Source: a virus (Duplodnaviria; Caudoviricetes). Taken from it: a stretch of 64,000 nt of DNA. The position numbers and the translations under genes are program-made. The DNA lies in IMG/VR virus record IMGVR_UViG_3300020365_000001; one strand, written 5' to 3'. Numbering within the stretch: the stretch's first letter is position 1; each line of letters starts with the position of its first letter. Positions 60,848 through 62,399 of this stretch are shown here, in pieces. Under the pieces are notes generated by a model, which was not told the DNA's origin, searched no databases, and saw only the letters and a list, made by a program, of their open reading frames with translations.

Positions 60848-61471
60848 TTAGATAAATTGTAAGACTCCTGTGACACTTTGCGAAGCGTCTTTCTTACTAA
60901 CTCGTTGTTTTGCTCGTTGATACAATGCTTGATCACTTTCACATCCCCAGTAATGACGACCGAGACGTTTTGCACTCACAGCAGTATCACCATCTCCCAT
61001 GAATATATCAAGCACAGTATCACCAGGGATAGTATATGCGTTGATTAGTAGTTCATCAAGAGATTGACGAGATGTAGATGAATGGACGCAAGTGTAGTGA
61101 TCACTATCATTTTTGTAAGTGAAATCCTTGCCCTTTGAGTAACACCAAGCATGTTGATGTTTGTGTGCAAAGTTCTTCTTACTACGACGACCAGTTCTAC
61201 ACTCAAACACGATCTCATTCTGCTCTGTTAGTTGTTTGTTACGATTCAGAGCATACTTATACACTAAGAACGATTCATTCTTGAGTGTTCCCCACACAAT
61301 CATCATCCCATTGGGTTTCAATACACGCACACATTCTGTGGTCCATTTCATACACCAACTGAGATACTTTTTACCTCCACCAGGTGGAGGTTCAGTGAGG
61401 ACGAGATCAACAGAATTGTCCTTCAATTTACTGAGAAACTGTAAACAATCCTTGTGCTGTAATTTATTCAT
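60848..61471 (-). CDS. Beta-class N6-adenine/N4-cytosine DNA methyltransferase homolog with degenerate catalytic motifs
   Basis: Family layout 'DCLQFL..L.DNSVDLVLT', 'RVLKPNG', 'PGDTVLDIF.G.G.T...A..LGR...G.E'. Motif IV reads EPPP rather than (D/N/S)PPY, and HPTxKP is missing. Confidence 0.8.
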   Translation of the reverse strand: MNKLQHKDCLQFLSKLKDNSVDLVLTEPPPGGGKKYLSWCMKWTTECVRVLKPNGMMIVWGTLKNESFLVYKYALNRNKQLTEQNEIVFECRTGRRSKKNFAHKHQHAWCYSKGKDFTYKNDSDHYTCVHSSTSRQSLDELLINAYTIPGDTVLDIFMGDGDTAVSAKRLGRHYWGCESDQALYQRAKQRVSKKDASQSVTGVLQFI

Positions 61472-61998
61472 AAGTTGGCATACAATGACTTCATGAAGGG
61501 AAAGTCTTGGGGGAATCCATCAAGGAAAAATGTACCTGAGTTCACGGTTTTACCACCATGTTGGTTGTACTTCCAGAACCCATTCTCATCTTGTGCTGAC
61601 ACGAACTCATCAACTTCTTGTTTGGTTGATGAATACATCTCAACACGATCAGGATACATTGCCAGGAAGATAATCACATCATAGTCTTGACTAGTGCGAA
61701 TTTGTTGCCAACGAAACTGATCACCACCACCCCACAACATCGATCCTTTGATTTCACATCGACGACCGTTGATGATACGATCGTATTCACTTTGTTTTGG
61801 ACGAGTAACTGCGAACCCAAGATGTTTGCAGTATTCACTAACAAGTTGCTCAAAGAACTTTCCCTTGCGTTTGCTACTCATTTCTTTGTAGACACGAAAG
61901 GGAGAATCAATGTAGAGATCAGCATCACGATCATTCAATGCATCATCGTGAGTCTGATAACTTTCAATGAACTGAGCAGGAATCGTGGTGTCAATCAT
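61468..61998 (-). CDS. PD-(D/E)XK restriction-endonuclease-like protein
   Basis: 'KGKFFEQLV...EYDRIINGRRCEIKGS...FRWQQIR...YD' fits the E...D...ExK core; ATGA-coupled to the MTase homolog. Confidence 0.7.
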   Translation of the reverse strand: MIDTTIPAQFIESYQTHDDALNDRDADLYIDSPFRVYKEMSSKRKGKFFEQLVSEYCKHLGFAVTRPKQSEYDRIINGRRCEIKGSMLWGGGDQFRWQQIRTSQDYDVIIFLAMYPDRVEMYSSTKQEVDEFVSAQDENGFWKYNQHGGKTVNSGTFFLDGFPQDFPFMKSLYANL

Positions 61999-62370: not shown

Positions 62371-62399
62371 AAAAAAAATGCCACCGGTGTGGTGGCATT
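62371..62399 (-). terminator. Rho-independent terminator
   Basis: Minus strand AATGCCACC-ACACC-GGTGGCATT-TTTTTT. Confidence 0.8.

Follow-up and report, generated by a model that had tools for sequence, protein, structure and literature searches.

Chloroviruses carry viral restriction-modification (R-M) systems; their nucleases are believed to break down the DNA of the host and to leave that of the virus intact. In phage T4, host DNA is degraded by EndoII and EndoIV, and hydroxymethylcytosine protects the phage's own. MseI is a known TTAA enzyme, for which the Protein Data Bank searches made returned no solved structure. PacI is an HNH enzyme, and its carrier genome is GC-rich. According to its description (PMC3488263), the Pseudomonas alcaligenes enzyme PacI is a solitary restriction endonuclease that has no cognate methylase and whose host genome lacks the site; immunity by site absence is, in the case of PacI, already known in a bacterium. 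The present work concerns two overlapping genes, one encoding a small nuclease and the other a degenerate DNA methyltransferase (methylase) homologue, in a 64,000-base stretch of DNA (IMG/VR record IMGVR_UViG_3300020365_000001; hereafter, the window). Its source is a T4-like marine cyanophage, with a CobS-like gene 70–80% identical to those of Kyanoviridae isolates. An earlier note, made from the letters of the window alone, proposed a TTAA-specific nuclease in a phage that had purged the site and no longer needed methylation. Comparative genomics supports this proposal: the nuclease is probably an active, phage-borne Type II restriction-type TTAA endonuclease, to which the phage would be immune by site purging, methylation having been made unnecessary. 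In the literature, no report was found of a phage whose 4-bp cutter is rendered harmless by site purging, nor of TTAA avoidance by cyanophages.

TTAA is absent from the window, which carries an intact PD-(D/E)XK nuclease gene

TTAA frequencies were counted by script on the DNA of each record and are given as observed/expected. The 4-bp palindrome does not occur between positions 1 and 64000 of the window (no strand applies), although 176 occurrences would be expected under a second-order Markov model, or 398 from base composition. The absence of TTAA reported in the earlier note was therefore real. TTAA was the sole tetranucleotide missing, and its one-mismatch neighbours occurred at or above expectation. 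In no open reading frame (ORF) of 100 or more codons did a T precede a TAA stop or an A follow a TTA codon, unlike in phages S-PM2 and Syn19. The evidence from this genome covers the 64 kb of the window plus a near-twin, G004 (= G001), an IMG/VR record of 112 kb that is 59% complete and 98.5% identical to the window across ∼54 kb; in the near-twin, TTAA was again absent (0/321 over the 112 kb). As a separate observation, the window was depleted of RGCY words by factors of 4 to 13 (AGCC 9/119, GGCC 11/65, GGCT 17/78 and AGCT 32/144), a depletion shared by most of the cyanomyoviruses sampled, whether or not they carry the candidate TTAA nuclease.

The candidate TTAA-specific restriction-type endonuclease is the 176-residue product of the ORF at 61468..61998 on the minus strand (ORF call and translation). 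In an alignment of 21 homologues, with identities reaching as low as 45%, residues E50, D73 and E82-I-K84 were found to be invariant; the catalytic candidates are thus E50 (61849–61851), D73 (61780–61782), E82 (61753–61755) and K84 (61747–61749), all encoded on the minus strand. The AlphaFold model (predicted local distance difference test score, pLDDT, 93) showed a PD-(D/E)XK core in which a helix (residues 42–59) is followed by two strands (74–76 and 79–87). The best structural matches were I-Ssp6803I (Z 11.3) and NhoI (Z 9.7), followed by Hjc resolvases, PvuII and EcoRV, the last two at Z 6–7. The invariant residues, the order of helix and strands, and the Z scores place the protein in the PD-(D/E)XK nuclease superfamily, as the earlier note had supposed from the E...D...EIK pattern of an intact ORF. 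The gene is intact and under constraint, the ratio of non-synonymous to synonymous substitutions (dN/dS) being 0.14 when the window was compared with relatives that already share its methylase deletions (synonymous divergence, dS, 0.4–0.5).

The protein matched phrog_6927, a family of unknown function, at 8e-24, and a Pfam search gave no match. In marine metagenomes its homologues formed at least 174 clusters, to which a profile search added 894 more distant ones, while a pattern-based scan of ∼185,000 bacterial and archaeal genomes, the reach of which is limited to fairly close relatives, found no close relative. A 276-residue variant (P0009–P0013, P0031) was also common, being present on 75 contigs of up to 153 kb; its extra ∼100 N-terminal residues have no match in the protein of the window.

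On the minus strand, the nuclease gene is followed by the ORF for the methylase homologue (60848..61471), the two sharing the 4-base stop/start overlap ATGA at 61468–61471 (tcat on the plus strand). This coupling, read directly from the sequence, is the one that had been noted earlier, and at ∼30 related loci the nuclease and methylase genes likewise overlapped or nearly abutted.

TTAA content varies with the state of the methylase gene

Loci were sampled by nuclease family, which yielded 44 IMG/VR loci together with several assembly contigs and cultured isolates. At ∼30 loci, representing roughly 20 distinct lineages, the nuclease gene was followed or overlapped by a gene for an intact methylase (motifs DPPY, HPTTKN and FMGSG). 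TTAA was depleted at these intact-methylase loci, with values ranging from 1/95 to 74/112, and was never zero where 15 or more sites were expected. The search for intact-DPPY orthologues in TTAA-retaining genomes, suggested in the earlier note, thus had a positive outcome. Record G005 (133 kb, ∼70% complete), with an intact methylase, had 114 of 574 expected sites, and the whole genome of isolate S-BM3, in which the nuclease gene and an intact methylase gene are unlinked, had 76 of 552.

The loci with a degenerate methylase (the window, G004, L006–L010 and L014) all had zero TTAA, the count for L006 being 0/84. Five further records carry the nuclease gene and no PF01555 methylase. TTAA was absent from G002 (0/693; 192 kb, 100% complete by CheckV), from the 179.6-kb isolate S-ShM2 (0/586) and from G008 (0/95). 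G007 had 2/219, both sites lying within the contig's final 240 bp, and G009, in which the nuclease is followed by a split methylase-like pair of the NPPF type, had 2/34. The genomes of G002 and S-ShM2 contained no PF01555, PF02384 or PF00145 methylase and one Dam-type PF02086 methylase each; lacking such a methylase and having zero TTAA, they fit the situation described for PacI.

In a maximum-likelihood tree of the nuclease, the cases with a missing or degenerate methylase and no TTAA, or nearly none, fell in five separate places. S-ShM2 (zero TTAA, no PF01555 methylase) was sister to S-BM3 (76 TTAA, intact methylase), and the clade of the window was sister to a clade with a DPPY methylase in which TTAA was already depleted 10- to 50-fold (2/92 and 15/138), which fits purging of the site before decay of the methylase. 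Exact zeros were found in ∼4 of 5 lineages without the methylase versus none of ∼20 with it; a Fisher-type calculation by hand, for which the lineage counts are approximate, gave ∼4e-4. The covariation of the pair with TTAA depletion across cyanophages, which the earlier note had asked about, was therefore found, with zero or near-zero TTAA in five methylase-defective nuclease lineages.

Some loci showed additional features. In the first 16 kb of G005, around the cassette, TTAA was absent, the first two 10-kb bins having 0/46 and 3/47, while depletion over the record as a whole was ∼5-fold. In L015, L016, L022–L024 and L052, a gene for a methylase of ∼326 residues with an SPPY motif (N4-cytosine-like) lies directly after that of the DPPY methylase, ∼740 bp past the nuclease gene, making a three-gene nuclease-methylase-methylase cassette. 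At L051:6925–8895, on a contig with 2/34 TTAA, the nuclease gene is overlapped by a 298-residue ORF, the start of which lies just ahead of an NPPF motif, and the next ORF, of 154 residues, contains FTP...DPACGDGQFL (motifs X and I); the arrangement resembles a gamma-type methylase that has been split and its order swapped.

Phages without the nuclease have normal TTAA content

Nine isolates without a match to the nuclease-family profile (S-PM2, Syn19, S-RIM2, S-SCSM1, P-TIM40, ACG-2014f, S-RIM8, S-CAM9 and AG-345-D19) had TTAA observed/expected ratios of 0.86–1.05, which rules out TTAA depletion as a general trait of cyanomyoviruses. When loci centred on CobS were sampled, the ratio was 0.55–1.07 in 75 of 80. 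Of the remaining five, the two with zero TTAA were the closest relatives of the window, and the other three (0.16–0.46) had a DPPY methylase gene beside CobS, where it also lies in S-BM3.

A paralogous nuclease subfamily, represented by S-SSM4 (L181:18296–18829) and loci L220–L262, keeps the E..D..TEIK residues and differs elsewhere. Its gene lies after a helicase gene and has no adjacent methylase gene. With this subfamily the missing word was TCGA, which was absent from S-SSM4 (0/107) and from 13 of 34 S-SSM4-type loci, whereas only 1 of 77 controls lacked it; TTAA was normal in all 43. At some S-SSM4-type loci with normal TCGA, SPPY or NPPY methylase-like ORFs were seen just downstream.

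These controls bear on the foremost alternative, according to which restriction by the host or by a third party, directed at TTAA, drove the loss of the site, while the nuclease serves a different purpose and the methylase, an orphan anti-restriction enzyme, had no further use when the sites had gone. Phages commonly avoid the sites of host enzymes (PMC6286503), and many cyanomyoviruses lack or are poor in other 4-bp palindromes (CCGG, GCGC, RGCY), for which no responsible nuclease was identified here. However, the nuclease-less cyanomyoviruses are normal in TTAA even when they share an isolation strain with carriers: S-BM3, which has the nuclease, and S-SCSM1, which does not and has normal TTAA, share host WH7803, and WH8102, the isolation host of S-ShM2, also has nuclease-less phage(s) with normal TTAA. 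This makes a host R-M enzyme an unlikely driver of TTAA loss, and speaks against the possibility, raised in the earlier note, that depletion tracks host R-M independently of the locus. Moreover, since G002 and S-ShM2 are free of TTAA without any PF01555 methylase in their genomes, the element shared by the TTAA-depleted phages is the nuclease; that a paralogous subfamily tracks a different palindrome, TCGA, also speaks against a host-driven loss. This explanation is thus considered improbable.

It is also improbable that some other candidate gene of the genome lies behind the loss of TTAA and that the 176-residue nuclease is a mere passenger. The Dam-type PF02086 methylases of G002 and S-ShM2, encoded elsewhere in the genome, could be cited in its favour. 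Against this, the association with TTAA emerged when this nuclease family was sampled over distant lineages with differing genome backgrounds, and from the state of the adjacent methylase one can predict if TTAA will be entirely absent or just low.

Several other words were found to be missing from the sampled DNA. CCGG was absent from that of S-PM2, Syn19, S-RIM2, S-SCSM1, P-TIM40, S-SSM4, S-RIM8 and S-BM3, and stood at 1/123 in S-ShM2; it was normal in the window (109/116) and in G004 (166/164). GCGC was 0/38 in P-TIM40 (L175–L177) and 0/43 in G005 (L213–L219), CGCG and GCGC were both zero in AG-345-D19 (L187–L189), and GATC was 31/237 in S-RIM8 (L184–L186).

The methylase homologue has lost its catalytic motif and is under purifying selection

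The product of the ORF at 60848..61471 (minus strand, 207 residues) is a degenerate homologue of beta-class N6-adenine DNA methyltransferases, referred to below as the pseudo-methylase. It matched Pfam PF01555 (N6_N4_Mtase) at 4e-27 (96 bits; cut-off 26.7) and phrog_67 at 4e-37. It was aligned with its nearest relatives, a cyanophage subfamily of beta-class N6-adenine methylases of ∼250 residues (DPPY, WHPTTKN, FMGSGST), the closest solved relative of which, by sequence, is M.RsrI (5e-30). Motif IV, DPPY in the relatives, reads EPPP in the window (61382–61393, minus strand), and motif I, DIFMGSGST in the relatives, reads DIFMGDGDT (60983–61009, minus strand), with the FxGxG core retained. In place of WHPTTKN stands VHSSTSR; ∼14 residues are deleted directly after motif IV, and a second deletion of ∼45 residues spans the target-recognition region. 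The PF01555 match and the alignment uphold what the earlier note had seen here, a beta-class methylase homologue with EPPP and DIFMGDGDT and without HPTxKP, and the ∼45-residue deletion accounts for the recognition region that had looked shortened. This degenerate form was common to only two other sequence clusters (86–88% identical). Close relatives carry EPPS, so that the fourth position of motif IV is either P or S, a variation that is expected if catalysis has been lost.

The structural model (pLDDT 79) has a methylase core, with Foldseek matches at 3e-16 to M.MboIIA, M1.HpyAVI, CcrM and M.RsrI. By sequence and fold, then, the pseudo-methylase belongs to the beta-class N6/N4 DNA methyltransferases (PF01555), but it has neither the catalytic tetrapeptide (D/N/S)PP(Y/F/W) nor the target-recognition domain of an active enzyme. 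In the window the nuclease therefore has no linked active cognate methylase, while intact pairs exist in related phages. To judge from these sequences, the ancestral locus would have been a Type II R-M system, and that of the window no longer qualifies as one.

The dN/dS of the pseudo-methylase, measured between the window and relatives sharing its deletions (dS 0.4–0.5), was 0.18–0.20. Since this value of ∼0.2 was obtained after the deletions arose, the gene has been kept as a protein-coding one in the sub-clade of the window, and a neutrally decaying pseudogene can be ruled out. Of the two fates that the earlier note had offered for the methylase, decay or repurposing, the loss of the catalytic motifs and of the recognition region stands, but simple decay does not, given the purifying selection. 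The protein is nevertheless dispensable, since L011 and G002 are equally free of TTAA and do not have it; one close relative of the window, L011, cleanly lacks the methylase gene, and its nuclease gene is directly followed by the homologue of the window's next ORF. A complex prediction for nuclease and pseudo-methylase scored 0.00; having been run without controls, it is silent on binding either way. As a guess, the pseudo-methylase might be a non-essential accessory protein that binds S-adenosylmethionine or modulates the nuclease.

Its open frame, its FxGxG core, the methylase core of its model and its dN/dS of 0.18–0.20 could alternatively be taken to mean that the 207-residue protein still methylates DNA, if with changed chemistry or specificity, in an ordinary functional R-M pair. 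This is very doubtful, as motif IV has had both its catalytic D and its aromatic residue replaced (with P or S at the fourth position in close relatives too) and the whole target-recognition region is gone, along with the HPTTKN motif. In addition, deletion of the gene in sister lineages left TTAA status unchanged, and a TTAA-free genome leaves a TTAA methylase nothing to protect.

As to its setting, the pair belongs to a series of small ORFs that share one strand and lies ∼1 kb downstream of the CobS-like gene. The nuclease gene is preceded by a 121-residue ORF, upstream of which lies a terminator-like hairpin with a T run (62377–62399, minus strand). Only 20 bases separate this ORF from the nuclease start, for which reason the two are probably co-transcribed.

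Discussion

The course of events that most simply accounts for the observations is as follows. The 176-residue nuclease would derive from a two-gene nuclease-methylase cassette that is widespread in marine cyanomyoviruses, its ancestral partner having been a beta-class N6-adenine methylase that protected TTAA. Carriage of the nuclease would select against TTAA even with the methylase active, and the lineage of the window would have lost first most of its TTAA sites, and then all of them. With no sites left, methylation would have become superfluous; the methylase may then have lost its catalytic tetrapeptide and DNA-recognition region, and in sister lineages the gene would have been deleted. 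The present phage would be immune to its own nuclease through site absence, while the DNA of the host and of site-bearing rival phages would still be cleavable. That the enzyme cuts at TTAA, that it acts on host or competitor DNA, and when it is expressed are inferences. From base composition, a host genome of 2–3 Mb is estimated to hold thousands of TTAA sites, and according to a review (PMC2984593) denA, ndd and denB are missing from cyanomyoviruses, which may degrade host DNA by an undescribed route. Together these make shredding of host DNA, or exclusion of rival phages, a plausible role for the nuclease.

Several points weigh against a site-purging TTAA endonuclease. Its TTAA specificity rests on correlation across genomes. 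A PD-(D/E)XK fold, seen here in a model, is no proof of a Type II restriction function, and among the nearest folds are those of I-Ssp6803I, which is a homing endonuclease, of NhoI, which is methyl-directed, and of Holliday-junction resolvases. The depletion of TTAA in phages with an intact methylase is explained by analogy with site avoidance in genomes that bear R-M systems. G009 is not a clean case of a missing methylase because of its split NPPF-type pair, and L054, a TTAA-free 7-kb contig, shows no nuclease gene in the 3 kb downstream of CobS.

The I-Ssp6803I and Hjc matches and the position of the nuclease gene, which varies in the genome from phage to phage, might suggest a selfish homing-type or a repair/resolution nuclease paired with the methylase incidentally, but this is very unlikely given the overlapping-gene linkage to one methylase subfamily conserved at ∼30 loci, the quantitative relation to one 4-bp palindrome, and a context in which no intron or intein was seen.

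If the nuclease is indeed a TTAA endonuclease made harmless by site purging, a 4-bp cutter combined with complete purging would solve the problem of host-DNA breakdown for a subset of cyanomyoviruses, which are among the ocean's most abundant viruses and recycle host nucleotides without the T4 breakdown genes or a T4-style self-marking modification; it would also be a possible tool in phage–phage competition. The constraint on the genome is extreme, ∼600–700 expected sites having gone, those in coding sequence and at stop codons included, and the lineages form an evolutionary series in which an R-M cassette sheds its modification half. Since S-ShM2 and S-BM3 are cultured isolates, the idea is directly testable. 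A broader possibility, put forward tentatively, is that small, solitary restriction nucleases form a diversified family in marine cyanomyoviruses, with members directed at TTAA, at TCGA and perhaps at CCGG/GCGC, which shred host or rival DNA and know self purely by the purging of a word; the methylase states would then trace the route from R-M system to weapon, with the pseudo-methylase newly regulatory.

How this locus stands to known systems can be set out as follows. METTL14, the partner of METTL3, is a catalytically dead methyltransferase paralogue with an EPPL motif. The pseudo-methylase resembles it in that the acidic residue of motif IV has become E, the aromatic residue has been lost and the fold is kept under selection, although this is an analogy and not close homology; METTL3–METTL14 structures were among the weaker fold matches of the model. 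No active paralogue of the same subfamily that could act as a METTL3-like partner was found in G004, the near-identical record, which is 59% complete. As in Type IIP R-M systems such as RsrI, the gene for a small PD-(D/E)XK nuclease is coupled to that for a beta-class N6-adenine methylase (motif IV before motif I) and the inferred target is a 4-bp palindrome; the differences are that lytic cyanomyoviruses carry the cassette and that the window's methylase is degenerate, with protection that would come from site absence. With the chlorovirus and T4 systems it shares a virus-encoded nuclease and, as proposed here, the degradation of host DNA with the viral genome spared, but those viruses modify their own DNA chemically, whereas here protection would reside in the sequence alone.

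The closest likeness in logic is to PacI, in that a restriction nuclease (here predicted to be active) is tolerated without a methylase because the carrier genome has no sites. The PacI site, however, is an 8-bp, AT-only one, and since such a site is rare, its absence costs little. In the cyanophages the carrier is a virus, ∼600–700 expected 4-bp sites would have been purged from genomes of 180–190 kb and ∼41% GC, and, unlike the case of PacI, intact, degenerate and deleted stages of the methylase can all be observed.

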